Part shown: in pieces, positions 3,457 through 62,075 of the stretch | Position numbering within the stretch: the stretch's first letter is position 1 | How the letters are laid out: each line of letters opens with the position of its first letter | IMG/VR virus record: IMGVR_UViG_3300020045_003166 | Location: 13-64,012 of that record | Reading direction: 5' to 3' (one strand) | Length of the DNA stretch: 64,000 nt | DNA from: a virus | Lineage: Duplodnaviria > Caudoviricetes | Notes under the pieces: model-generated | The model's database searches: none | Seen by the model: only the letters and a program-made list of their open reading frames with translations | Told to the model about the DNA's origin: nothing | Position numbers and translations under genes: made by a program

Positions 3457-3465
3457 AAATGACGC

Positions 3466-3502
3466 TTTACTTTTTCTGCCCCCACCACTATAATTGGGGG
3501 CA
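3466..3502 (+). promoter_or_regulatory. Promoter TTTACT-N17-TATAAT with the -10 flanked by inverted repeat TGCCCCCA/TGGGGGCA
   Basis: -35 3466-3471, -10 3489-3494, repeat arms 3477-3484 and 3495-3502. Confidence 0.8.
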
Positions 3503-3535
3503 GTTGTAACCGATAACCCTAACTGGAGAACCAAA

Positions 3536-4052: not shown

Positions 4053-4339
4053 TGAAAATGAAAACGCTAACTCAGCGCGAAGCTAAGGAAGGAGGGTTCG
4101 TAATTGATTCATCTTGCTCTCCTAACGTGGCTTATAAAGGTCCTCGCTTCAACCCGACAGAATGGTGTTACGTTAGGTCAGGTGATGAAGAGACCCTGCT
4201 CGAGCGTATTGCCGAACTTGAAGAACAAATCAGGCTAATACGAAGCAAGGTATATTCAGCAACTATTTGCCACCCGCAAGGCGTGCAATATCTTCTTGAA
4301 GAGGCTCTTGCTATCATCGACATCGAGGTAAAGAAATGA
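4049..4339 (+). CDS. Hypothetical protein
   Basis: ATGA overlaps at both ends. Confidence 0.6.
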   Translation: MMKMKTLTQREAKEGGFVIDSSCSPNVAYKGPRFNPTEWCYVRSGDEETLLERIAELEEQIRLIRSKVYSATICHPQGVQYLLEEALAIIDIEVKK

Positions 4340-5436
4340 ACCGCTCAATTTTCCCCAAGTTCTCCCTGAATCGGACCATCCGATGGGAAGACTACCTCAA
4401 CGTCCTCACGCCGTGGGAGAATCATCAAGGTATTTGGTTCAAGCGTGAAGACTATTTTGCGCCCTTGGGCTACGGTGGTCCAAACGGTTCCAAGTGTCGT
4501 CAACTGATTCACTTGATGAGCAGTAGCCTCGAAGGTAAGACTCACGTCCTCTCCGGCGCGAGCGTCAAGTCGCCTCAGCTTTCTATGAGCGCGATTATCG
4601 GAGCGCACTACGGACTGCCGAGCCGTCTTATCGTGGGTGCGACAAAGCCCAAGACGATGTTGTATCACCCCAACCCTCGCATTGCCGCTGGGTTCGGCGC
4701 CAAGTTCGAATTCATCAACGTCGCCTACAACCCGGCTCTTCAGCGTGAAGTAGCGAAGCTGACCAAGCCTTCCAGCCTCGTGGTGAAGTACGGTATTACA
4801 GTGGATCACAACACGTGTGTGCTAGAAGACCTCGTAGACTTTCACTCGGTGGGCGCTAATCAAGTCGCTAACCTACCTGACGAGGTCGAGGTCTTGATAG
4901 TACCTGCAGGGTCTTGCAACTCGCTGGTCAGCGTTTTGGTCGGACTGTACGCGGATTCCAAGAACGTGAAGCTGCTATACACGCTCGGGATTGGCCCTAA
5001 TAAGATGGAATGGGTGCGTGAGCGCTGCCTGAAGATGGGTATCGACCTTGATCACGCTCCGTTCAAGTGGAAGCATCACAGTCTTCATGACACCGGGTTC
5101 TCCACGTATCAGGACAGTATGTCTGAGAGCTTTGACGGGATTGATTTTCATCCGACGTACGAAGGCAAGATGATCCGTTACCTGAAGAGCAAGGGATGGC
5201 TCCCGGAAGACGGTACGGTTGGCTTCTGGATAGTCGGTAGCGAGCCTAACCTCAAGATCATTGAACCGTTTTACACGACCGATCCCGAGAGTATCCTGGC
5301 CGAAGGCGAGACGGTTGATATCTTAGCCAAGGCTGAAGCGATGTACGACGACATGCCGACCCCGAAACCCGCTTGGGACAACCTCGGAGTCACGACGCAG
5401 TCCGTGTGGATTGAGAAAGCAAAGGCGACCGTATGA
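4336..5436 (+). CDS. PLP-dependent enzyme (fold type II), likely decarboxylase acting on amino-acid-modified thymidine in DNA
   Basis: WFKREDY...NGSKCRQ (Schiff-base Lys), VPAGSCNS phosphate loop, HPTYEGK; context of the T-modification cluster. Confidence 0.8.
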   Translation: MNRSIFPKFSLNRTIRWEDYLNVLTPWENHQGIWFKREDYFAPLGYGGPNGSKCRQLIHLMSSSLEGKTHVLSGASVKSPQLSMSAIIGAHYGLPSRLIVGATKPKTMLYHPNPRIAAGFGAKFEFINVAYNPALQREVAKLTKPSSLVVKYGITVDHNTCVLEDLVDFHSVGANQVANLPDEVEVLIVPAGSCNSLVSVLVGLYADSKNVKLLYTLGIGPNKMEWVRERCLKMGIDLDHAPFKWKHHSLHDTGFSTYQDSMSESFDGIDFHPTYEGKMIRYLKSKGWLPEDGTVGFWIVGSEPNLKIIEPFYTTDPESILAEGETVDILAKAEAMYDDMPTPKPAWDNLGVTTQSVWIEKAKATV

Positions 5437-5978
5437 GCTACTTGAATCATGACCAAATCGTCCAGGCTTGCAAAGCGGGTGCGATAGAAAACTGGTCATC
5501 GGAGTGCGTGAATGCAGCCAGCCTAGACTTGCGTTTGGGCGAGACGATCTTCATGGAAGAGCCGGGTCGTACGATTACGCTTTCCTACCGTAACCGCGAT
5601 CCAATGAGGATGCGTGAGTATACTCTCGGTAAAGAAGGTATCATTATCATGCCCGGCGAGTTCTTCCTCGCGCACACGGTTGAGCAGTGTAACTTCCCGG
5701 ACGACCTCGCCGCCTTGTTCCGTATCAAGTCTAGCATGGGTCGCATAGGGCTTGAGCATATGGACGCCGGATGGGTCGATCCCGGTTTTCATGGGGCACT
5801 GACGCTCGAGTTCAAGAACATGACTCAACATCATGCTATCCTCTTGCGTCCTGGCGACAAGATCGGTCAGCTGATCTTCTTCCGAGGCGACAAAGTCAAT
5901 GAAGACCAGAGTTACCGGATGAAGGGTAACTACAACGGCCAGAGTGGTATCATGCAAGCGGGTTACAAGGAGAAGTAG
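5433..5978 (+). CDS. dcd: dCTP deaminase
   Basis: ASLDLRLG, PGEFFLAHT, KSSMGRIG, GWVDPGFHGALTLE, PGDKIGQLIF. Confidence 0.9.
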   Translation: MSYLNHDQIVQACKAGAIENWSSECVNAASLDLRLGETIFMEEPGRTITLSYRNRDPMRMREYTLGKEGIIIMPGEFFLAHTVEQCNFPDDLAALFRIKSSMGRIGLEHMDAGWVDPGFHGALTLEFKNMTQHHAILLRPGDKIGQLIFFRGDKVNEDQSYRMKGNYNGQSGIMQAGYKEK

Positions 5979-6152
5979 ATGAACTCCTGTTATTCATGTA
6001 AAAACTATCACCGCTACAGGGAATCTGAGTCATGGGAACTGGATTACATTTTATGGTACGTATTTGTGTGCGATGCTCGCCCAACTATTGTAAATCTTAA
6101 ACAGTTTCCTTTTACGAATACTAAATGCAAGTCCCACAAGGAGGATAAGTAA
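5979..6152 (+). CDS. Small Cys-containing protein, 57 aa (below cutoff)
   Basis: MNSCYSCKNY...CKSHKEDK; begins immediately after dcd stop. Confidence 0.5.
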   Translation: MNSCYSCKNYHRYRESESWELDYILWYVFVCDARPTIVNLKQFPFTNTKCKSHKEDK

Positions 6153-6325
6153 TGGATGCTGAAGAATTCTACGAGTGCTTCAAAGAAGCTCTTGACGCGC
6201 TTGGACCAGGTTTTAGACGAAAACAAGATGTAAAGGTCAGTATCAAAAATGGGCGATTTTGCATGTCATTCGATGTGACTGAGATTGCTATTTTACTTGA
6301 TACGAAGATAACGGAGGACAAGTGA
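6152..6325 (+). CDS. Hypothetical protein, 57 aa (below cutoff)
   Basis: GGAGGA RBS, TAATG overlap; MDAEEFYECFKEALDALG... Confidence 0.55.
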   Translation: MDAEEFYECFKEALDALGPGFRRKQDVKVSIKNGRFCMSFDVTEIAILLDTKITEDK

Positions 6326-6630
6326 TGGCTATGGAATTACGAGGTTCTCTCAACCTCAGTAAGTACTTCAAACTCAGTTCTAATCAGCCTAAGTTCTACG
6401 GCAAGGCACTGATCAACGGGGTAGAGTATACGCTGAAAGGCTGGGAGAAAGTACGACAGGATACGGGCGAAGTCTGGATCAGCCTACTGTTCGAAGACCC
6501 TGCGGACCAGGAAGAGAAACTGGCGGAAGAGTTCGCCCCAACCCCTAAACGGATGGAGCCGGTACGCCGACCCCGAACCGTTCAACCGAGACATCATCAG
6601 GAGCTTAGCGATGACGACGTGCCTTTCTAA
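6322..6630 (+). CDS. SSB-like small protein with acidic DDDVPF tail
   Basis: Beta-rich N-terminus (PKFYGKALINGVEYTLKGW) and SSB-type C-terminal DDVPF. Confidence 0.6.
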   Translation: MMAMELRGSLNLSKYFKLSSNQPKFYGKALINGVEYTLKGWEKVRQDTGEVWISLLFEDPADQEEKLAEEFAPTPKRMEPVRRPRTVQPRHHQELSDDDVPF

Positions 6631-6919
6631 CGAGACGGAAAACCCCCTCACTTATGTCGATCACGATGGTGCACGACGCGTAGTCCGCGGGTGCAAGCTG
6701 ACAGTGGATCACCTAGATCGCTACTGGATATGGAGCGAGCGGGTAAACCACAACATTGTCTACCGCACCAAGGGGCGCGAGAACGCATTACTTGGCGCGA
6801 TTGACTCGTTACTCTTCACCATCCAGCTACGGGATGAGCGTATTGCTGCGTTACAGCGAGTATACGACCTTGCGCAACGCTTTGCTGCCGAGGCTTTTCC
6901 AGAGGAGGAATCAGAATGA
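6611..6919 (+). CDS. Hypothetical protein within modification cluster
   Basis: ORF overlaps both neighbours; GAGG RBS for the next gene lies in its 3' end. Confidence 0.6.
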   Translation: MTTCLSNETENPLTYVDHDGARRVVRGCKLTVDHLDRYWIWSERVNHNIVYRTKGRENALLGAIDSLLFTIQLRDERIAALQRVYDLAQRFAAEAFPEEESE

Positions 6920-7908
6920 TGGACTACCGCCTGAAAGAGAATCGCCTGGAGTATTTTACCAAGCTCTACGCGATGAACCTGGAATATGGTATCATGCCGG
7001 GTTTGGTCTACCTTTACATGCCCGAGCTGGCTAAGAAGTATTCCTGGGACATGGAACAGCGGCTCTGGTTTGCCTTCTTGAATGGCAATACGCAGAACCC
7101 GATCACCAGTATGCGTATCTTCCGCCGGTTCCCCGAGCCTCCGCAGAACAAGGCTGAGCTTCAAGACCTCGAGGTTTGGTTCAACGCTGAATGGGAGCGC
7201 CTAAGTTTTGACACGGACCGCCGCTACCAGAAAAAGGACTTCCCGGCCGCAGTAATGTCCTACTGCCGAGCACTTCACGCATTTGAAACTCAGGAAAACC
7301 TACTCACCGGGACGTACGAAGAACTGTGGGAGCGCGTGACTACGTGTTTCAAGAGCTTCGGACGGCTAGCGACCTTCTCGTACCTGGAATACGTCAAGAT
7401 CATGGGAGCGGGAGCCGCGTGTACCGACCTGTTGTTTGAAGACAAGTCCGGCAGCAAGTCCCATCGCAACGGTATGCTGTTTTTGCTAGGTCATGATCAC
7501 CTGGTATGGGACAAGCGACAACCTGATGGACATGATGGAGACTACGGTGACCATTTCAAACGAATGTGCGCATGGCTTGACGGACAAGCCGCAAATTACA
7601 TTAGAGATTGCGGAATTCAACACCGCGACCTGGGTAATTTCACCCTGGAAAGTCAGTGTTGCCAGTTCAAGAACGGTTTCTTCCGTCGGCGCTATCCGGG
7701 TGTCTATGCCGACATGGCTTGGGATCGGATTAAGTGGTATGAGGATCGATCACTGTTCGATGTGACCTCCGACTTCCGCCGGATACGCGAAGATCACCTG
7801 CCCGAATGGTTACGCGAAGAGTGCGAGTCGCCGGTAGTAGATCGCAAAGTCAAAGCCTCACGATTCATGGAAACGGGCGTTCCGTTCCGTGCTGAACATT
7901 TCCTTTAG
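6916..7908 (+). CDS. Amino acid:DNA transferase (AADT / aGPT-Pplase2-like)
   Basis: DYRLKENRLEYF, RLWFAFLNGNTQN, FDTDRRYQK, FGRLATFSYLEY, SKSHRNG, RRRYPGVYAD recalled as M6 gp51-type motifs; cluster context. Confidence 0.75.
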   Translation: MMDYRLKENRLEYFTKLYAMNLEYGIMPGLVYLYMPELAKKYSWDMEQRLWFAFLNGNTQNPITSMRIFRRFPEPPQNKAELQDLEVWFNAEWERLSFDTDRRYQKKDFPAAVMSYCRALHAFETQENLLTGTYEELWERVTTCFKSFGRLATFSYLEYVKIMGAGAACTDLLFEDKSGSKSHRNGMLFLLGHDHLVWDKRQPDGHDGDYGDHFKRMCAWLDGQAANYIRDCGIQHRDLGNFTLESQCCQFKNGFFRRRYPGVYADMAWDRIKWYEDRSLFDVTSDFRRIREDHLPEWLREECESPVVDRKVKASRFMETGVPFRAEHFL

Positions 7909-7917
7909 GAGACTCAA

Positions 7918-8496
7918 ATGAGCAAGAAAATCGTATCACTTCGTGGCACCAGCGGTTCCGGCAAGAGTACCGTGGCCTTCAAGATCTTCGAAAAGTACCC
8001 TCGCCAGGAAATCGTCGGAGCCGACGGCAAGATTCAAGGCTACAAGGTGGATGCTCGTCCCGAGGTGAAACATCCTATCTACGTCCTGGGCAAATACACG
8101 ACGGCGTGCGGTGGGTGCGACCAAATACCGACTCAGCAAGAAGCTGCTGACCGTGCCGTACACTATCACCGCGACGGTCACGTACTGATGGAAGGTCTCC
8201 TGGCTTCGGCAGCAGGTCCGGCAGGAGCGGTTACGATGACGATCCAAGCCACGGGAGAGGCCGTTTTCGCCATCCTCGACACACCGGTAGACCTTTGCAT
8301 TGAGCGCGTCAAAGCCCGGCGTCTAGCGCGTGGAGATGAGCGCCCTCTCAATGAGAAAAACACCAGGGATAAGTGGCAACAGACAAGAAGTACGGCGAGC
8401 GCCCTGTTCAAACTCGGTTACGACGTCCGACCCATTGATCACACTCAAGCGTTCCAAGACGTGATGGACATTTTCGTGGGAGCCGAGCGTGATTAA
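7918..8496 (+). CDS. P-loop kinase (5-hmdU DNA kinase or hm-dUMP kinase)
   Basis: Walker A GTSGSGKST; LGKYTTACGGCD; LMEGL; DTPVDLCIERVKARR (NMP-kinase-like lid). Confidence 0.8.
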   Translation: MSKKIVSLRGTSGSGKSTVAFKIFEKYPRQEIVGADGKIQGYKVDARPEVKHPIYVLGKYTTACGGCDQIPTQQEAADRAVHYHRDGHVLMEGLLASAAGPAGAVTMTIQATGEAVFAILDTPVDLCIERVKARRLARGDERPLNEKNTRDKWQQTRSTASALFKLGYDVRPIDHTQAFQDVMDIFVGAERD

Positions 8497-9394
8497 TCCT
8501 TTCAACCGACCCACTATCTACGCTCCGTGCCTGAATGACATTCTGTACTGGGTAGCTGAGCGGGAACGTATCCGTGAGGCCAAACTGATGGATAGCGTGG
8601 AGCCATGGACTGAGGATCCCATTCTCCAGAAGTATCGCTTTTGTAACGTCCGTCGTCGTCACGACCGGATGAGTCAGTGGATGATTTATAACATGTTCGC
8701 TCCGTACAAGGCTGACGATGATAAAGACCTTTGGTTCGTGTCCGCTGTTGCTCGCTACGTGAACTGGCCGCCGAGCCTCTTGTCGCTCTTGATGAACGGA
8801 GCTATCCCGCTTAGCGCTGAGAAGTTCGACCCTTACGTCTTCGTGGCCGTGATGGACGACCTCAAGAAACAAGGGCTCAAGTGCTGGGGAAGTGCGTATA
8901 TGATTTATCCGTCTAGTACGAAGGGAGCTAACAAGGCCGAGACGGTAGCCTTCCGCTTCCTGCAACCCCTAGTGGATCACGCTGAGGAAGTCCGTAAAGC
9001 GGTAGCGAGCAATACCGTCGAGGGGGTAGTGACTGAACTGTCTAAGTTCTATGGCTGGAATACCTTCTTGTCTGGCCAGGTGGCGGCAGACCTGACGTAT
9101 TTTGCCGATGAACTCGGCATGGCGAAAGACCTGTATAATTGGGCGCCTATTGGGCCGGGTTCGCAGCGAGGATTGAATCGTCTGTTTGGGTATCCATTAG
9201 CACACGCTTGGAAACAAGACGACTTCAACAAAGCGTTGATGGTAATCTGGCAGGATATTGCTGAGCAGTTAGACCTTGAAGACATCACGTTACATGACGT
9301 CCAAAACGTGATGTGCGAAATGGACAAGTACTGGAGAGTGCTCGCGGGTGAAGGTGCTCCCCGTTCGATTTACGTGCCGGAAACGGCTTACTAG
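8489..9394 (+). CDS. 5-hmdU DNA kinase helical-domain / aGPT-Pplase1-like protein
   Basis: ERERIR...PWTEDPILQKYRFCNVRRRHDR, GQVAADL, GPGSQRGLNRL, DVQNVMCEMDKY; GTG start overlapping the kinase stop. Confidence 0.8.
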   Translation: MINPFNRPTIYAPCLNDILYWVAERERIREAKLMDSVEPWTEDPILQKYRFCNVRRRHDRMSQWMIYNMFAPYKADDDKDLWFVSAVARYVNWPPSLLSLLMNGAIPLSAEKFDPYVFVAVMDDLKKQGLKCWGSAYMIYPSSTKGANKAETVAFRFLQPLVDHAEEVRKAVASNTVEGVVTELSKFYGWNTFLSGQVAADLTYFADELGMAKDLYNWAPIGPGSQRGLNRLFGYPLAHAWKQDDFNKALMVIWQDIAEQLDLEDITLHDVQNVMCEMDKYWRVLAGEGAPRSIYVPETAY

Positions 9395-9403
9395 GAGAAT
9401 AAC

Positions 9404-10387
9404 ATGGAAATCAGGACAAGAAATGTCAATACCGCTCTCAGCGACGCCCTCTGGCGTCTCAAGGTCTGCGGAGTCGGCGAGCAAACTCGCAACGGACCGG
9501 TCATCGCCTTCCCCGAGCCGATTATGACTATCTACGAAAGGCCTCAGGAGCGAGTATTGTTCTGGGGAGAGCGCGACGCCAACCCGATCTTCCACTTGAT
9601 GGAATCGATTTGGATGCTGGCCGGACGCCGAGACGTCAAGTTCCTGGAACAGTTCAATTCCAAGATCGGTCAGTATTCCGATGATGGCGAAGTGTTCAAT
9701 GCGGCCTATGGCTATCGCTGGCGTACTCATTTTGGGTATGACCAGCTGAAACTGATCATTGATATACTGAGAGCCGACCCCAACACTCGTCAGGCGGTGA
9801 TGCAGATCTGGGAACCGGATGACCTGTTCAAATTCACTAAGGACAAGGCTTGTAACACTCAGGTCTTCTTCGAGATTCGTCAGGGATATCTCAACATGAC
9901 CGTGATCAATCGCTCGAATGACATGTGGTACGGGTGTTACGGAGCAAACGCGGTACACTTCAGTATGCTGATGGAGTTCGTCGCCCACGCCGTCGGTGTA
10001 CCGATGGGAGAGTACCGTCAGTTCAGTAACAACCTCCACCTCTACACCGAGTTGTATGATGCGGTAAAACACCTTGACTGTCCTCCCGAGCCATATGACT
10101 ATGACGCCTATCAACATGGCGTGCGCCCCTCGCCGATACTCAATATCGGCGATGATTGGCGTTCCTGGCTAGAAGACGCCGAGGCTTTTTGCGACGACCC
10201 ATTTAGAACTAAAGACTTTACGCACCCATTTTTCTTAGACGTAGCATGGCCGATGGCAATGGTCTCTAAGGTGCGTAAGGACAAGACGGGAACCGGGATA
10301 GACTGGGCGCACTCCATCGTCGCTGAAGATTGGAAAATAGCCGTTGGTGACTGGATTGAACGGCGTGAATTAGCTAAGCAAAAATAA
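9404..10387 (+). CDS. Thymidylate-synthase-fold dUMP hydroxymethylase
   Basis: TRQAV, catalytic KACN, RSNDMWYGCYGANAVHFS (Asn suggests dUMP substrate), NNLHLY; no DHFR gene seen. Confidence 0.8.
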   Translation: MEIRTRNVNTALSDALWRLKVCGVGEQTRNGPVIAFPEPIMTIYERPQERVLFWGERDANPIFHLMESIWMLAGRRDVKFLEQFNSKIGQYSDDGEVFNAAYGYRWRTHFGYDQLKLIIDILRADPNTRQAVMQIWEPDDLFKFTKDKACNTQVFFEIRQGYLNMTVINRSNDMWYGCYGANAVHFSMLMEFVAHAVGVPMGEYRQFSNNLHLYTELYDAVKHLDCPPEPYDYDAYQHGVRPSPILNIGDDWRSWLEDAEAFCDDPFRTKDFTHPFFLDVAWPMAMVSKVRKDKTGTGIDWAHSIVAEDWKIAVGDWIERRELAKQK

Positions 10388-10390
10388 CGC

Positions 10391-10424
10391 TTGCCCCCAT
10401 TACGGACTTGAGCTATAATGGGGG
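10391..10424 (+). promoter_or_regulatory. Promoter TTGCCC-N17-TATAAT with CCCCC/GGGGG boxes
   Basis: -35 10391-10396, -10 10414-10419, GGGGG 10420-10424. Confidence 0.75.
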
Positions 10425-10454
10425 TACTTACTAACCGATAACAGGAGAAATAAA

Positions 10455-11066
10455 ATGAGTAAAAAATACGAATTCACCGGCGAGACGAAAATCCACTTCG
10501 GCGTGACGCTTCGCCGGATTCGCGCACTTGTGACGATTATCGGCGTCGTTTCGTCCGGTGATGCTGGCGGGTGGATCGAGTCAGAAAAATGCCTTGATCA
10601 CAATGGTAATGCGTGGGTCTCTGGTAATGCGTGGGTCTATGACGATGCGTGGGTCTCTGGTAATGCGCGGGTCTATGGTAATGCGCGGGTCTATGGTAAT
10701 GCGCGGGTCTATGGTAATGCGTGGGTCTATGACGATGCGTGGGTCTCTGGTAATGCGCGGGTCTATGGTAATGCGTGGGTCTATGGCGATGCGCAGGTCT
10801 ATGGTAATGCGCAGGTCTATGGCGATGCGCAGGTCGAGTCAAAAGAGTCTATCTGCTCGTTCTCCGGGTTCGGTTCTGAATTCCGCACGACCACTGCATT
10901 TATCGATAAAGAGCTTGGCATTCGAATCGTATGCGGATGCTTCACCGGAACGCTTTACCAGTTCCGCGAGAAGGTTATTCAGACGCACGGAGAAGATAGC
11001 AAGAACGGGAAGTTGTATCTCGGCATGGCGAACATGATTGAATACAGGCTTGGGAGCGAGAAATGA
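10455..11066 (+). CDS. Hexapeptide-repeat (left-handed beta-helix-like) phage protein
   Basis: KKYEFTGETK...RIRAL N-terminus, 13 x G(N/D)A(W/R/Q)V(S/Y), C-terminal TTAF...CGCFTGT. Confidence 0.85.
   Translation: MSKKYEFTGETKIHFGVTLRRIRALVTIIGVVSSGDAGGWIESEKCLDHNGNAWVSGNAWVYDDAWVSGNARVYGNARVYGNARVYGNAWVYDDAWVSGNARVYGNAWVYGDAQVYGNAQVYGDAQVESKESICSFSGFGSEFRTTTAFIDKELGIRIVCGCFTGTLYQFREKVIQTHGEDSKNGKLYLGMANMIEYRLGSEK
10605..10838 (+). repeat. 13 x 18-bp tandem repeat (consensus ggtaatgcgcgggtctat)
   Basis: Read directly; encodes the hexapeptide repeat. Confidence 0.95.
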
Positions 11067-15516: not shown

Positions 15517-16074
15517 ATGGCAAAATTTGGATTTGACACTCAAGATTATGATCCGCAAGACCGCGACTTCGAAGTCCTCCCGAAGGGTGAGTACACGCTG
15601 AAAGGTACCGAAGCCGAAGAGAAGGCGACCAGCAAGAATGACGGCAGCTATATCGCAGGCGTCTTCGAAGTGGTCAAGGGTGAGCACGCCGGTCGCAAGG
15701 TCTGGATGAACTTCAACATCAACAATCCGAGCGACAAGGCTGAGAAAATCGGTCGTGAGCAGATCGTCGGCTGGGCGCGTGCGTGCGGTAAGCCGAACGC
15801 CCAGGACACGGACGAACTGTTGGAGCGTAACTTCCAGGCCAAACTCGACATCGAGAAGGGTACGGGAGGCTACTCGGACAAGAACAAGATCAGCGCGTTC
15901 CTGATGCCAGAAAAGAATGCCGCTCCCGCGCCAAAGGCTGAGCAAAAGAAGGCTCCTCCGAAGGCCGAACCTGCGGAAGAGGAAGCTGAAGAGACCAAAC
16001 CTGTGCCGGAAAAGAAGAAAGAGGCTCCCAAGACTGCTCCGGCGGGTAAGAAGCCAAATCCATGGGATGATTGA
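15517..16074 (+). CDS. DUF669-like ssDNA-binding protein
   Basis: LPKGEY, GRKVWMNFNINN, CGK, acidic/aromatic tail KPNPWDD. Confidence 0.8.
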   Translation: MAKFGFDTQDYDPQDRDFEVLPKGEYTLKGTEAEEKATSKNDGSYIAGVFEVVKGEHAGRKVWMNFNINNPSDKAEKIGREQIVGWARACGKPNAQDTDELLERNFQAKLDIEKGTGGYSDKNKISAFLMPEKNAAPAPKAEQKKAPPKAEPAEEEAEETKPVPEKKKEAPKTAPAGKKPNPWDD

Positions 16075-16398
16075 TTTGGTTAGGGTTGGCGGCTCAGCTG
16101 AAAACTGAGTAAAAGCGTTCCCCGGTGCCGCGCCAACGCCGGGACTTACACAGAAACCCTTCTGAATAGGGAACTAACTGGAAAGCTCTGTAATTGCGGG
16201 AGTAAGGAAGCTCGGAGCCGTAAGGGAGGGTTTCTGTGTGAGTGCAGGACGTAGTGTTAAGTCGCAGCACGTCGTTTCGGAGGTCGCGCACCGAGCACTC
16301 ACTTAGTTCCGCCACCCTCGCCTGACTTTATGAAAGGAACTCGCGGCGGGAAACTGCGATGAGGGTGGCACCTAACGCACTAACTGATAGGAGATAAC
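16075..16398 (+). ncRNA. Candidate structured non-coding RNA of unknown class (strand inferred from surrounding operon)
   Basis: 17-bp helix 16144-16160/16227-16243 plus several 6-10 bp helices; no credible ORF. Confidence 0.6.
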
Positions 16399-16629
16399 AT
16401 GAGTATTAGAGAAAAGCTATTTGGTCGCCCCGAGCGAGATGCTCTGATAAGAGTGATACGTGAGCAAGAGGAACGTATTGAATCTCTACGGGGTAACCTG
16501 ACAGGGATGAATAATGCGGCTGAGACCTGGGAAAAGCGTTACTTTGAACAGCGACGTCAATATGATGAGCTAGTATTCTCGCAAAGAAAACTCATTCACG
16601 AAGGTTTGCGCGACATGGGAGTAAAGTGA
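16399..16629 (+). CDS. Hypothetical coiled-coil protein
   Basis: AGGAG RBS. Confidence 0.7.
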   Translation: MSIREKLFGRPERDALIRVIREQEERIESLRGNLTGMNNAAETWEKRYFEQRRQYDELVFSQRKLIHEGLRDMGVK

Positions 16630-17465
16630 TGGCTGAAATCAAACAAGCGTCTCACGGTATGATCGATCGCATTTACGCTCATTACGAGAAACAGAATGAA
16701 AAACCTATCTACCTGGCGCGTATTGGCGCGTCTAGCATTGGTGACCCTTGTCTGCGTTCTATTTGGCTGTCCTGGCGAGCGTACGATGACAAGAAGTTTG
16801 ATGGACGGATGTTGCGCCTCTTTTCCACCGGACATCTTCAAGAAGAGCGTATTCAAGCCGATCTGAGCAACGCCGGATTCAAAGTCTGGACGCACCAGGA
16901 CGACGGCAATCAGTTCACCTACACAGACGAAACCGGTCACTTCGTGTGTAAATTGGACGGGGTGATCAAAGGTGTTATAGGCGCCGAGAAGACGCCCCAT
17001 GACCTAGAAATCAAGACCCACAGCGTCAAGAGTTTCGACGAGGTCTTGAAGAAGGGTGTAGAGAAGGCGAAACCTGTTCATTACTGGCAGATGCAAGCCG
17101 GAATGCTCTTCAGCAAGCTCCCTCGCGCCCTGTACGTCGCGCTATGCAAGAATGATGAACAATATCACATCGAGCGGATCTACCCGGACCCCGTTATCCA
17201 GGAAGAGATCGGCCGTAAGATCATCAAGCTCGTAGAGGCGCGAACCCCTCCGGTCGGTATAAGCGATGACGCCGGAGCGTTTGATTGCAAGTGGTGTGAC
17301 ATGAAAGAAGTCTGCGTGGGTAAGAAACCTATCAAGACCTGTCGCTCTTGCGATCACGTTCAAGTCGTGCCGAAGAACGGCGAGTGGCTTTGTACGCTTC
17401 ATGGTAACGTACTGAGTAATGAAGAACAGAAAAACGCATGTTTTGAATATTCGGTGATCTCGTGA
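16626..17465 (+). CDS. PD-(D/E)XK (Cas4/RecB-like) exonuclease
   Basis: IGASSIGDPCLR, FSTGH, KLDG, LEIKT, HYWQMQ, CKWC...CRSC cluster. Confidence 0.85.
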   Translation: MMAEIKQASHGMIDRIYAHYEKQNEKPIYLARIGASSIGDPCLRSIWLSWRAYDDKKFDGRMLRLFSTGHLQEERIQADLSNAGFKVWTHQDDGNQFTYTDETGHFVCKLDGVIKGVIGAEKTPHDLEIKTHSVKSFDEVLKKGVEKAKPVHYWQMQAGMLFSKLPRALYVALCKNDEQYHIERIYPDPVIQEEIGRKIIKLVEARTPPVGISDDAGAFDCKWCDMKEVCVGKKPIKTCRSCDHVQVVPKNGEWLCTLHGNVLSNEEQKNACFEYSVIS

Positions 17466-17941: not shown

Positions 17942-17947
17942 TCAGGC

Positions 17948-17983
17948 TTTACTTTTGGAAAACCCCCAGCTATAATGGGGGCA
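17948..17983 (+). promoter_or_regulatory. Promoter TTTACT-N17-TATAAT flanked by CCCCCA / TGGGGGCA
   Basis: -35 17948-17953, -10 17971-17976. Confidence 0.8.
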
Positions 17984-18009
17984 CCTTAACAAATAACAGG
18001 AGAAATGAA

Positions 18010-18183
18010 ATGGACGTCTTCCTAATCTGGGTTGCCCTTGAAATCGGCAAGGTACTTTGTTACCCGAACACGTGCGCTACCGAAATCATTCAAGAGATCA
18101 GTGCTCCGGCGGAGGAGAAGAAACCCGAAGAGCCGGAACCGGTTGTTACTGAAGAACCTGTTGAGGAGAAGAGTGATGAATGA
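18010..18183 (+). CDS. Small hypothetical protein with acidic/Pro-rich tail
   Basis: AGGAG RBS; first gene after promoter. Confidence 0.6.
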   Translation: MDVFLIWVALEIGKVLCYPNTCATEIIQEISAPAEEKKPEEPEPVVTEEPVEEKSDE

Positions 18184-59314: not shown

Positions 59315-59610
59315 AGGGGGTATAGTCGGAATTAGGGGGTATACCGAGGGGTCAAAACAAAATTCTATACCCCCTAGTGAACCCCCCATGACCCCCCAAC
59401 TCATTACTCTATAGAGCCCCTCTTTTTAGGGGGTATAGGGGGTATAGAAAGAGAAGAAGATTAACCGATAAAAACGTAAAAGTTAACCTCTGTATTCTAT
59501 ACCCCCTAATGACTTATACCCCCTAATCCTCTATCCCTAACTCTCCATAGCTTTCGTTACCCATTTTACCATGCCCCCAATACCCCCTAATTTCTCTTCA
59601 TACCCCCTAA
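59315..59610. repeat. Cluster of about 9 (T)AGGGGGTA(TA) / (TA)TACCCCCTA boxes in both orientations; probable replication origin
   Basis: Copies at 59315, 59333, 59366, 59427, 59436, 59498, 59515, 59581, 59601. Confidence 0.8.
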
Positions 59611-59612
59611 TT

Positions 59613-62075
59613 CTACTGCACGATGGTTTCCATCCGATAAGCTGACCGCTTCTCCACCGTATAGCTCACCAGTCTCCAGAGCACCCCTTCTTTATCCATA
59701 AAGGGGAAATCTTTCACGGCATTCAGGGCGTATCCGCATCTAAAATTCAAGTCTTGCTTTGGTCGCTTACTCAGGATATTCACCCAGGCTTCTTGTTCAG
59801 ACTCCGGACCGATATTCACCGCTAAATCGGTCGACCTAAAATACTTCCCAGTCTTACTCAGCGGACTCCGCATTCCCGTTACCCACAGGTGATGGACAAA
59901 CTCCAGAAAGCTATAACGAGACTCTTCCGCCGAGTCTATTGTGCGATCTTCATCCTCCATGGCCGGAGGCGCAACGTCCATGTGACAAATCATCATTACC
60001 GTACGACGCACCATGTAGTCCCACATCTTAAATCGGTGATTCGGTTTCCAATCTCCGTCCCCTTGCTCCATCGCCCATTTGATCATACCGATGGCGGCAG
60101 AGACCATCTTAGAGCGGTTTTGCAGCGTGTGTCCTACCACGTCCATGTAACGGAACTTGCGATTGGGATCGAGGTTGGTTCTCGCCAGTCTAATAAACAC
60201 CGAGCGGGTTTGTAGGTCTAGTGACGGAGCGGTATTTACCCCGTTGAGGAGGAACATAGTATTGTTAGGTACGCTACGCGTCTCATTCGTACCCAACACT
60301 CGGAACTCGGGATTGGTAGAAGTCAAGGCTTCCGTCAAGGCGGCACTGCGGAACTCTCCGTCGTGATTATCCAACGTCACCACACGCCGACCTCGGGACA
60401 AGATGGCCGAGAGTTGCTTCTCTTGCTCTTCGTCGTTACCACCTCTAGATAGCTGACCCAGGGACTGTTCGACTCCCGCCGAAGCCGCGATAACTCCGCT
60501 CAAGACGCTCTTACCGTCGCTGTACTGCGACGACGTAATGACGTACATAGGACAAATGTCTAACACCGGGCGGATCACCGCCGTCAAGATAGCCGACAGC
60601 GACGCCGCATAGTAACGTCCGGCTCCTCCACCAATGAAAGGAAAGTCTATCAAGACGTCCTTGATAATCGGAATCGCTTCGTCCGGGAACATCGGCTGCA
60701 CGGCGAACTCACAGGCCGAGAACAACTTCAACTCCTCATCGTATCCCCAAGCGGAATCTATGATACGACCCGAGGAAGTAATCAACGGCGTGTTACTCAC
60801 TCCTCGCAGTTCCGGGAGCATTCCCTTGTACGTCGCGGGATCGGATATTTCCATCGCCAGGGACGTCGGGCACTTGATGTCTTGGTCATTCAAGATACCG
60901 GTCGCCTTGTCCATCACGGATTGGGAGAACCGTATCTCTCGCGTCAGCCAAGACGCCGCCGTGACCCCCTTAGACAACGCCGTGATATGGGCTTTCGTAC
61001 CGACCTTGTTCACCACACAGGCTTGCCCGGCCATCTGGTAAAACTTCTCGCTTTGGACCATCGCCGATAGAGTGTGGTCTATCCACAACGGTTCTTTAGA
61101 GGTAATGATCTTTACGGCAGGGCGAGCGTCGTCGATCTCTTTACTACCGAACTTGAACGTCTTACTCAGCCACTTGCAAAGCGCCTTGGGCCAGCGATCA
61201 CTGTTATATAGGTAACCGATACCGGCAATGTTTTCCCCTTCCGCATGGCGTGCCCGAGACGTCTTCAAAGACGCCAACCGATCCTCGATACCGGTCTGGC
61301 CGGACTGATCGGCGATGTAGCGCACCGACTTCTCTATTAACTCGTCGGGTATCCCCGCCGCGATCATAAATCCACACCAGTACATCATGTCTTCGTGGAA
61401 CTTACCGCTCTGGAAGTGTGCTACGGAATGGAAAGAAGCCTTGGCGACCCGAATGCACTGATTCAAATAGTCCCGAGTTGTTTCCGGGATCGGACCCTTA
61501 GGAACCTGAGTGGAGTTACCTTCCCACCGTACACTATCAATTATATAACCAAGCTTGTGGTCTACTATCGTACTCGTAGGTGCCATCGTCTGGCCGCCAT
61601 TAGTGCGGAGTTCAATAGCGCCGTTACCCGTAGGACGCTCCACCGTGATGTTGCGCCCTGGGTCACTCACTTTGTATAGCCAGTGGGCTAGCTGTTGTTT
61701 ACCGTCACCATAGTAGCGACCGAACTTGAATGGCGTAGGTGGGAGGAACAGTGGGAGGATGTCTATCAGTTCCCGATCATCAATATCGACATCGCAGATG
61801 TTATTGCCGGTCTCGCCGGTGATGATACCTATGTTATGGTAGCCTGTGAAGTCCGTTACGTGAGGAACCGGACGCTTTTGCCATTCATCCCCCACCGGCG
61901 CTTTCAGTCCGGGGTGGAGCATCACCGGGCGGAAGCCTGATTCAATTAGCTGGTGATAGGTAGATCGTATGAGTTCTTGATGCTTGAGTTGTTCGTAACC
62001 TTCTTCCCTGAGTCTTGATTGAGCCTGAGTTGAGGTCAATGCCTTCGGCTTCATCTTTACTACATTCGTATTCAT
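59613..62075 (-). CDS. Primase (Prim-Pol/AEP N-terminus) with C-terminal NTPase-like domain
   Basis: LHPGLKAP..W, NIGIITG....CDVDID, IELR..G.QT.AP.S; later DGKS and VVTLDN. Confidence 0.8.
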   Translation of the reverse strand: MNTNVVKMKPKALTSTQAQSRLREEGYEQLKHQELIRSTYHQLIESGFRPVMLHPGLKAPVGDEWQKRPVPHVTDFTGYHNIGIITGETGNNICDVDIDDRELIDILPLFLPPTPFKFGRYYGDGKQQLAHWLYKVSDPGRNITVERPTGNGAIELRTNGGQTMAPTSTIVDHKLGYIIDSVRWEGNSTQVPKGPIPETTRDYLNQCIRVAKASFHSVAHFQSGKFHEDMMYWCGFMIAAGIPDELIEKSVRYIADQSGQTGIEDRLASLKTSRARHAEGENIAGIGYLYNSDRWPKALCKWLSKTFKFGSKEIDDARPAVKIITSKEPLWIDHTLSAMVQSEKFYQMAGQACVVNKVGTKAHITALSKGVTAASWLTREIRFSQSVMDKATGILNDQDIKCPTSLAMEISDPATYKGMLPELRGVSNTPLITSSGRIIDSAWGYDEELKLFSACEFAVQPMFPDEAIPIIKDVLIDFPFIGGGAGRYYAASLSAILTAVIRPVLDICPMYVITSSQYSDGKSVLSGVIAASAGVEQSLGQLSRGGNDEEQEKQLSAILSRGRRVVTLDNHDGEFRSAALTEALTSTNPEFRVLGTNETRSVPNNTMFLLNGVNTAPSLDLQTRSVFIRLARTNLDPNRKFRYMDVVGHTLQNRSKMVSAAIGMIKWAMEQGDGDWKPNHRFKMWDYMVRRTVMMICHMDVAPPAMEDEDRTIDSAEESRYSFLEFVHHLWVTGMRSPLSKTGKYFRSTDLAVNIGPESEQEAWVNILSKRPKQDLNFRCGYALNAVKDFPFMDKEGVLWRLVSYTVEKRSAYRMETIVQ

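Follow-up and report, generated by a model that had tools for sequence, protein, structure and literature searches.

Phage genomes hold many unannotated non-coding gaps beside their replication genes. One of these, a 324-base gap between an SSB-like gene and the nuclease genes of an uncultured phage, raises the question of what such an interval contains and what it might do. An earlier note made from the letters of the sequence had read it as one RNA of about 300 nt with mutually exclusive helices. The gap is instead a real, strand-specific chain of four folded RNA modules that is absent from Rfam, and since it splits into modules found independently in other phages, the reading as one RNA does not stand. 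The fold is under selection for pairing and the distribution is modular, as shown below.

Genomic Setting and Transcription Context

The whole stretch of DNA that was analysed, hereafter the window, is a complete phage genome of 64 kb bounded by direct terminal repeats. Early and replication genes occupy its + strand from 0.4 to 21 kb, and the remaining genes lie on the − strand. The gap (16075–16398), the + strand of which has no ORFs, sits between the SSB-like gene and a 76-aa ORF; a Cas4-domain exonuclease gene and then a RuvC-like resolvase gene follow. The neighbouring features are:

15517–16074, + strand: upstream gene, DUF669/SSB-like protein of 185 aa (Pfam DUF669; PHROG single-strand DNA binding protein families)
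16381–16398, + strand: leader of the downstream cistron, with the TAACTGATAG motif and the Shine-Dalgarno sequence AGGAG (16389–16393), ahead of the ATG at 16399
16399–16629, + strand: 76-aa ORF, function not assigned, the first gene 3′ of the gap
16626–17465, + strand: Cas4-domain exonuclease (PHROG 1990, E 2e-80)

Scans of the gap for sigma-70-type promoters and, on the + strand, for intrinsic terminators returned neither; the best −10-like hexamer, TGCGAT, is without an A at −11. Because the scans see no promoter or terminator inside it, the gap is presumably read through from upstream, and an independent sRNA gene, one of the roles considered in the earlier note, is unlikely. Early sigma-70-type promoters are located at about 3465, 10413, and 17947, and the gap should belong to a polycistronic early mRNA that starts at the promoter near 10.4 kb and extends to the following promoter, at ~17.95 kb.

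Downstream of the last folded module of the gap (module C, described below), the order is TAACTGATAG-GAG-ATG. The TAACNGATAR leader motif has seven matches in the window, versus 0.57 expected, and is also found 3′ of early promoters, at 116, 409, 3507, and 10432. The early promoters at 3465–3516, 10391–10441, and 17947–18012 (also those at 67–125 and 351–418) carry a CCCCCA box in the spacer, and at three early promoters a TGGGGG box past the −10 element completes an inverted repeat around TATAAT. At each CCCCCA-box promoter, a TAACNGATAR leader comes next, before the Shine-Dalgarno sequence. In read-through RNA, these inverted repeats would fold as a hairpin before the leader, like module C; indeed, the arrangement of module C, a hairpin and then a TAAC leader, is that expected of the read-through RNA at three early promoters.

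Among the 30 early proteins, PHROG and Pfam scans revealed neither an antiterminator nor an enzyme for RNA processing. A set of thymidine hypermodification genes at 4336–10387 comprises a PLP enzyme, a dCTP deaminase, an amino acid:DNA transferase, a 5-hmdU DNA kinase, and a thymidylate synthase homologue. Inside ORF 10455–11066, an 18-nt unit is present in 12 tandem copies (10567–10872), which correspond to YdcK-type β-solenoid hexapeptide repeats in the protein. The non-coding region 59400–59620 contains about nine TAGGGGGTA/TACCCCCTA-like boxes in both orientations, some with one base changed, as well as inverted repeats of 17–19 bp, and is likely a replication origin or other protein-binding array.

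Overall Fold of the Gap

The chain consists of the following elements:

16089–16149, + strand: module A, two hairpins (hp1 and hp2); five copies (window, L002, L003, L051, and L047)
16144–16243, + strand: long hairpin of 20 contiguous pairs, three of them G–U, around a 60-nt interior (arms 16144–16163 and 16224–16243)
16238–16302, + strand: optional fourth hairpin, closed by GTGAGTGC/GCACTCAC; window and L002
16307–16372, + strand: module C, a three-way junction (stems P1, P2, and P3); three copies

The whole element is present in two IMG/VR relatives of the window, L002 (nuclease 90% identical) and L003 (87%). The comparison set thus comprises three full copies (window, L002, and L003) and two partial ones (L051 and L047), all from one set of samples, and the covariation statistics are thin because the copies are few and the sample set is single.

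On the + strand, the gap has a minimum free energy (MFE) of −123.2 kcal/mol, compared with −108.0 ± 5.2 kcal/mol for shuffled sequences (z = −2.93), and 0 of 100 shuffles folded as well; the z-score of the − strand is −1.98. The G–U pairs in hp2, the long helix, and P3 become C–A mismatches if they are read on the other strand, and the fold is therefore strand-specific. Accordingly, the proposal in the earlier note of a structured intergenic RNA is backed, for the gene strand, by the z-score together with compensatory changes in the homologues.

The strand specificity also bears on the idea of a DNA-level element, i.e., an origin of replication, hairpins for single-strand initiation, or a palindrome bound by a protein. 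Its location in the replication module would suit such an element, as would the inverted repeats likewise found around the −10 boxes at three early promoters. However, an iteron-rich, origin-like region is present elsewhere (59.4–59.6 kb), the gap lacks both repeats and an AT-rich stretch for unwinding, and compensatory changes and rewritten helices are unexpected for a protein-binding palindrome. With the G–U pairs added, a role of the gap as DNA is hardly credible.

Competing Helices and Comparison with Known RNA Classes

The pairings read by eye in the earlier note are all present, including the three that compete with the main stems, and its long helix (16144–16160/16227–16243) was correctly located, although it extends beyond the 17 bp given there to 20 contiguous pairs. 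The inference drawn from them, that the density of alternative helices is exceptional, does not hold. Stems of at least 8 bp that are possible in the gap number 14, compared with 13.9 ± 3.8 in shuffles (102 of 200 shuffles equal or exceed the gap), and in the thermodynamic ensemble the long helix has a probability of 0.99, P1 of 1.00, and P3 of 0.89, whereas that of each competing pairing is approximately 0. Only one competing helix, GTGAGTGC/GCACTCAC, has a counterpart in a relative (GTGAGC/GCTCAC in L002); the pairings 16082–16092/16309–16318 and 16170–16177/16303–16310 have no equivalents in L002 or L003.

These results weigh on the view that the gap is a switching, riboswitch-like cis-regulator or a self-cleaving ribozyme that works through exclusive helices or a pseudoknot. 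Alternative pairings do exist, GTGAG has two partners, and a TTCC upstream of P1 always has a GGAA. Nevertheless, the alternative helices are at chance level, of negligible probability, and, with the one exception, unconserved, and the loops that a ligand pocket would require vary among the copies. Rfam searches at E up to 10 revealed no ribozyme or riboswitch, and no ribozyme core was recognised by hand. A switch or ribozyme is thus very improbable.

The Rfam scan that the earlier note had named as a check gave no family for the gap: the whole window had no match in Rfam 15 at the gathering thresholds, and positions 15950–16500, searched at E up to 10, gave three chance-level matches (best E 0.95) that were far below gathering. 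ARAGORN found 0 tRNA or tmRNA genes in the window, and the tRNA model RF00005 had no match at E up to 10. The hammerhead core is a three-way junction with the strands CUGANGA and GAAA and a UH cleavage site. In the gap, the CUGAGUA of hp1 is without the essential G8, the junction strands of module C are 1, 3, and 1 nt long, and Rfam has no match, so that a hammerhead was rejected. Hence ARAGORN, Rfam, and the hand check of the core agree with the earlier impression that the region resembles no tRNA, tmRNA, or hammerhead. The HDV-like fold is a nested double pseudoknot in which the 3′ strand of P2 lies downstream of P1 and P4. It was rejected by hand, as no conserved P2 partner is found 3′ of module C, a position that a tRNA occupies in L003. 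The scan showed no intrinsic terminator (a GC-rich hairpin with a U-tract) on the + strand of the gap. Other candidates, namely an attP-like core and antiterminator RNAs of the nut/boxB or put-like kind, were weighed and not adopted.

Module A

Module A starts 15 nt past the stop codon of the SSB-like gene. Its first hairpin, hp1, is closed by CTCAG/CTGAG (16093–16097/16105–16109) and has a variable loop that always contains TGAA. The second, hp2, pairs 16121–16127 with 16137–16143, and the RNAalifold register gives 10 bp with a bulge; the linker between the two hairpins is TAAAAGCG. ACUUAC rather than a U-tract follows hp2, in contrast to an intrinsic terminator. In the global fold of the window sequence, hp1 and hp2 have a probability of only ~0.05; both are formed in the MFE structure of L003, and hp2 is also formed in that of L002.

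The mean column identity of the five copies is 95%, and the variation is nearly confined to the hp1 loop, one linker base, and one base of the hp2 loop. There is no informative covariation, and where the differences fall agrees with the fold. A covariance model of module A (R1) scored 86–93 bits and found a single copy in each complete genome. The two partial copies, L051 and L047, belong to phages with SSB and nuclease proteins only 32% and 35% identical to those of the window, yet they hold the first 62 nt of the element, and nothing more of it, at 92–93% identity. Module A is the sole nucleotide similarity between these phages and the window. Such conservation, which includes loops and linker, is above the need of plain protective hairpins and hints at a sequence-specific partner.

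A resemblance of the hp1 loop CUGAAAA to the anticodon loop of tRNA-Phe was rejected, as the other four copies have different 8-nt loops. In the two distant phages, TATAAC repeats ~10 nt apart adjoin the Shine-Dalgarno sequence between module A and the exonuclease start, three in L051 (2538–2588) and four in L047 (1655–1704, − strand); these repeats may represent a variant form of the TAAC leader.

Long Hairpin and Optional Fourth Hairpin

The 20-bp helix exceeds the stems in all 200 dinucleotide shuffles, in which the longest was 16 bp and the mean longest 10.8 bp. Elsewhere in the 64-kb window, hairpins of at least 15 bp are found solely in the iteron-rich region at 59.4–59.6 kb. In all three full copies, the long hairpin begins with CTTACA, and the remaining sequence is unrelated; the helix has 20 bp with one A–C mismatch in L002 and 16 bp in L003. 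When one mismatch was allowed in the scan, the helices at this place in the relatives were 19 bp (L002), 22 bp (L003), 20 bp (L081), and 17 bp (L079). Thus, every close relative that has the gap carries a helix of at least 17 bp there under that scan, and no helix of at least 17 bp with at most two G–U pairs was found outside this slot in 80 loci. A related case is L090, in which a hairpin directly 3′ of the SSB gene has an interior of 31 nt that is 90% identical to that of the L002 hairpin; its outer 17-bp helix is unlike L002 in sequence, but the pairing is retained. Collectively, the long double-stranded helix is the most constant feature of the slot in close relatives with the gap.

The fourth hairpin shares 6 nt with the base of the long helix, and the ensemble probability of its closing stem is approximately 0 once the long helix forms. 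Its GTGAG(T/C)...CTCAC pattern is present in the window and L002 and not in L003. In the window and L002 alike, GTGAG is able to pair with CTTAC or CTCAC.

Module C

The P1 stem of module C pairs 16311–16319 with 16361–16369, with an additional G16320–U16360 pair. P2 is formed by 16321–16323/16335–16337, and P3 (16341–16346/16354–16359) has 6 bp and a 7-nt loop, with an alternative GCGG-GAAA-CUGC tetraloop hairpin. A conserved ACC directly follows the junction. Module C loosely resembles the top half of a tRNA, in that a 9-bp stem is stacked on a hairpin and ends in ACC.

Covariation among homologues, another check named in the earlier note, was positive for P1 of module C, with three compensatory pairs in three sequences, and uninformative for module A. 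All 27 of 27 cells in the 9-bp P1 alignment are paired, and three of the nine pairs are changed on both sides; this level of covariation was reached by 17 of 500 column shuffles, with only three sequences to draw on. For the module C alignment, 92.6% pairing was observed, compared with 33–56% in slid controls, and RNAalifold independently recovered P1. The covariance model of module C (R2) scored 79–92 bits and found a single copy per genome.

Although the TTCC upstream of P1 finds some GGAA partner in every copy, a pseudoknot between the two was rejected, since a 0-nt loop would have to span the 9-bp stem. A promoter hidden in module C was likewise rejected: the −35-like hexamers lie at spacers of 18–19 nt from TGCGAT, which is without A-11.

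Distribution of the Modules and Content of the Slot

No match to the element was obtained with blastn against 50,697 isolated phages. The nuclease identity of the closest isolated phages is <40%, and in this sense the window has no cultured relative. At the protein level, ENA and Logan contain many nuclease homologues with 60–87% identity. In eighty other nuclease loci, blastn found no further copies, and the same was true of covariance models, which were applied to 32 of the 80; covariance model searches of 100 loci and seven phage records likewise gave no additional copy. The module C pattern retrieved only the known three copies from viral contigs, and no other pattern-matched locus scored with R2. 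Several candidates were set aside: a weak covariance model match (G002:6745–6806) lies within a 622-aa ORF; six matches from a metagenome scan for module A were all judged to be chance; one locus retrieved by the module C pattern (L062) proved unrelated on inspection; and a match in a genome contig of Micromonospora sp. HK10 (L166, 7567–7595) was also judged to be chance, its upstream half being unlike. The 29-nt L166 stretch corresponds to hp2 and the next bases of the L051 version with one difference, at an N of the search pattern.

The modules do not follow the relatedness of the nucleases. L079 (66% nuclease identity) and L081 (58%) are closer to the window than L051 and L047, yet they are without modules A and C. 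Their gaps at the same place are structured on the + strand (z = −4.9 and −3.7, respectively), each with a helix of 17–20 bp, and the gaps of L002, L003, L079, and L081 fold at z-scores of −3.2 to −4.9. The hairpin chains at the slot in L079 (2243–2500) and L081 (2177–2500) are unrelated in sequence to that of the window and may be further orphan RNA modules. Since a gap is altogether missing from most of the more distant relatives, the element is dispensable.

Genes are also found in the slot. In L003, tRNA-Met(CAT) and tRNA-Leu(TAA) genes (1652–1818) are inserted precisely at the junction of module C with the TAAC leader, and in L081 a tRNA-Met(CAT) gene (2101–2176) is at the start of the gap; the tRNAs thus share the SSB–nuclease slot but lie on opposite sides of the structured RNA. 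These tRNAs were all that scored in an Rfam search of the relatives. In L002, a free-standing homing endonuclease gene (1796–2446; 216 aa, NUMOD3 motif, PHROG 314) separates the SSB-like gene from module A; it abuts the 5′ edge of the module precisely, and its stop codon is inside the hp1 loop. With modules, tRNAs, an endonuclease gene, and unrelated hairpins as its content, the locus is therefore a variable slot for RNA cassettes.

Two readings arise from this distribution. According to the first, the modules are stable non-coding RNAs, cut from the operon transcript like the tRNAs of this slot, that act in trans, as a decoy, a protein sponge, or an anti-defence RNA, much as the T4 tRNA cluster holds unexplained stable RNAs. 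It would account for the tRNA genes in the same slot of L003 and L081, for the compact junction of module C with its conserved ACC, and for module A, the kept loops and linker of which, despite the divergence of the flanking proteins, fit a sequence-specific partner. However, the scans show no promoter or terminator belonging to such an RNA, neither ARAGORN nor the Rfam tRNA model detects anything, the middle of the element is unconserved in sequence, and the element occurs once per genome and is missing from most relatives. Trans-acting RNAs are accordingly an unlikely explanation, if one to be kept in mind.

According to the second, the modules are mainly recombination linkers or footprints of cassette exchange, conserved boundaries of the PeSL (promoter-early stem-loop) type where co-infecting phages swap hairpin cassettes, tRNA genes, or a homing endonuclease gene, and the RNA fold is secondary. 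Module A as the sole nucleotide similarity to L051 and L047, missing from the closer L079 and L081, is what exchange of this kind would leave, and the insertions in L002, exactly at the module A edge, and in L003, exactly between module C and the leader, point the same way. PeSLs, by contrast, have promoters and many copies, whereas here there is no scanned promoter and one copy, and selection on the fold is indicated by P1, with its compensatory changes, and by the long helices, which are rewritten and still pair. We consider linkers of this type distinctly unlikely as the main explanation; they are compatible with the spacer favoured below.

A bolder reading takes modules A and C to be phage RNA cassettes of a new class, sequence-specific and passed on horizontally, which bind a defined partner from host or phage (RNA polymerase, a ribonuclease, or a defence protein, for instance) and move among unrelated phages in the company of tRNAs and homing endonuclease genes. 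Clusters of tRNA genes in T4-like and T5-like phages adjoin stable RNAs and homing endonuclease genes. We consider this bolder reading improbable.

A Proposed Spacer for mRNA Processing and Stability

The explanation preferred here, tentatively and at somewhat less than even chances, is that the gap serves as a non-coding intercistronic spacer for mRNA processing and stability, which would uncouple the expression of the SSB-like protein from that of the nucleases. The module A hairpins, directly behind the SSB-like gene, would shield the 3′ end of its mRNA. The 20-bp helix would be a processing site of RNase III size that splits the message into two halves, and the module C junction, with the TAAC leader, would give a protected 5′ end to the message for the 76-aa protein, the exonuclease, and the resolvase. 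The two halves could then differ in stability and hence in yield, with abundant SSB and low-dose nucleases as the outcome. Cleavage, stabilisation, and the effect on expression are predicted steps of this model.

The spacer model is supported by selection for pairing, as seen in the three compensatory pairs of P1 and in a long helix that is rewritten yet paired. It is also supported by the slot of L003 and L081, in which tRNA genes are found; tRNA genes act as RNA processing signals, and the model therefore explains why they fit there. The helix 16144–16163/16224–16243 has the size of an RNase III substrate (about 20–22 bp of dsRNA). For this enzyme, 22 bp is an ideal substrate and cellular substrates are ~20 bp or less, and its cleavage can leave stabilising 3′ hairpins (PMC3867540). 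On the other side, the sequence conservation of module A is beyond the reach of the model, which keeps the trans-acting RNA and the PeSL-like linker alive as rivals.

Thus, the RNA element is new, with no Rfam family, but familiar in kind, and it is confined to a handful of uncultured phages. It illustrates that a gap of this sort may consist, as a mosaic, of RNA modules that are conserved separately rather than of a single RNA: one 62-nt module (A) is common to very distant phages, and a helix of ~20 bp is the one feature that all close relatives with the gap retain. If the processing model is true, it offers a simple rule for setting the SSB-to-nuclease ratio from one transcript and also accounts for tRNA genes landing in the slot; if it is false, module A is a good candidate small RNA, presumably with a specific partner.

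Comparison with Known Systems

Among known arrangements, the slot is similar to the tRNA clusters of T4- and T5-type phages in that it holds tRNAs (L003 and L081) or an endonuclease gene (L002) beside folded RNAs. It differs from them in that the window has no tRNA and no module scores as tRNA-like.

The PeSLs of T4-type phages are composite promoter–terminator motifs with many copies per genome (PMC2839356, PMC4122927). As in PeSL cassettes, a short non-coding stem-loop motif edges a variable slot here, sits at insertion/deletion boundaries, and is common to otherwise dissimilar sequences. Unlike them, modules A and C show no composite of promoter and stem-loop, no promoter being found by the scan, and each has one copy per genome.

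Stem-loops of selective RNA processing and stabilisation (SRPS), the logic that the proposed spacer would follow, have been described in the cip-cel operon of Clostridium cellulolyticum and in E. coli operons (PMC4423207, PMC10667835). The layout of the gap is theirs: stem-loops lie at the 3′ end of a gene within an operon, with no scanned promoter or terminator between the cistrons, after a protein in high demand and before enzymes in low demand. SRPS hairpins are, however, simple and unconserved in sequence, whereas very distant phages share module A at 92–93% identity and module C folds as a three-way junction.

Phage T7 offers the other close parallel in its RNase III sites (R1.1 and others; PMC3867540). 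Their sequences are unrelated to that of the gap, and they carry an internal loop that leads to single-strand cleavage, whereas the gap helix has 20 uninterrupted pairs. Both are nevertheless long, near-perfect hairpins in an untranslated intercistronic spacer of a polycistronic phage mRNA; the hairpin of the gap has about two helical turns, as in the T7 sites, and, if it were cleaved in the same manner, hairpins would remain at the new ends.
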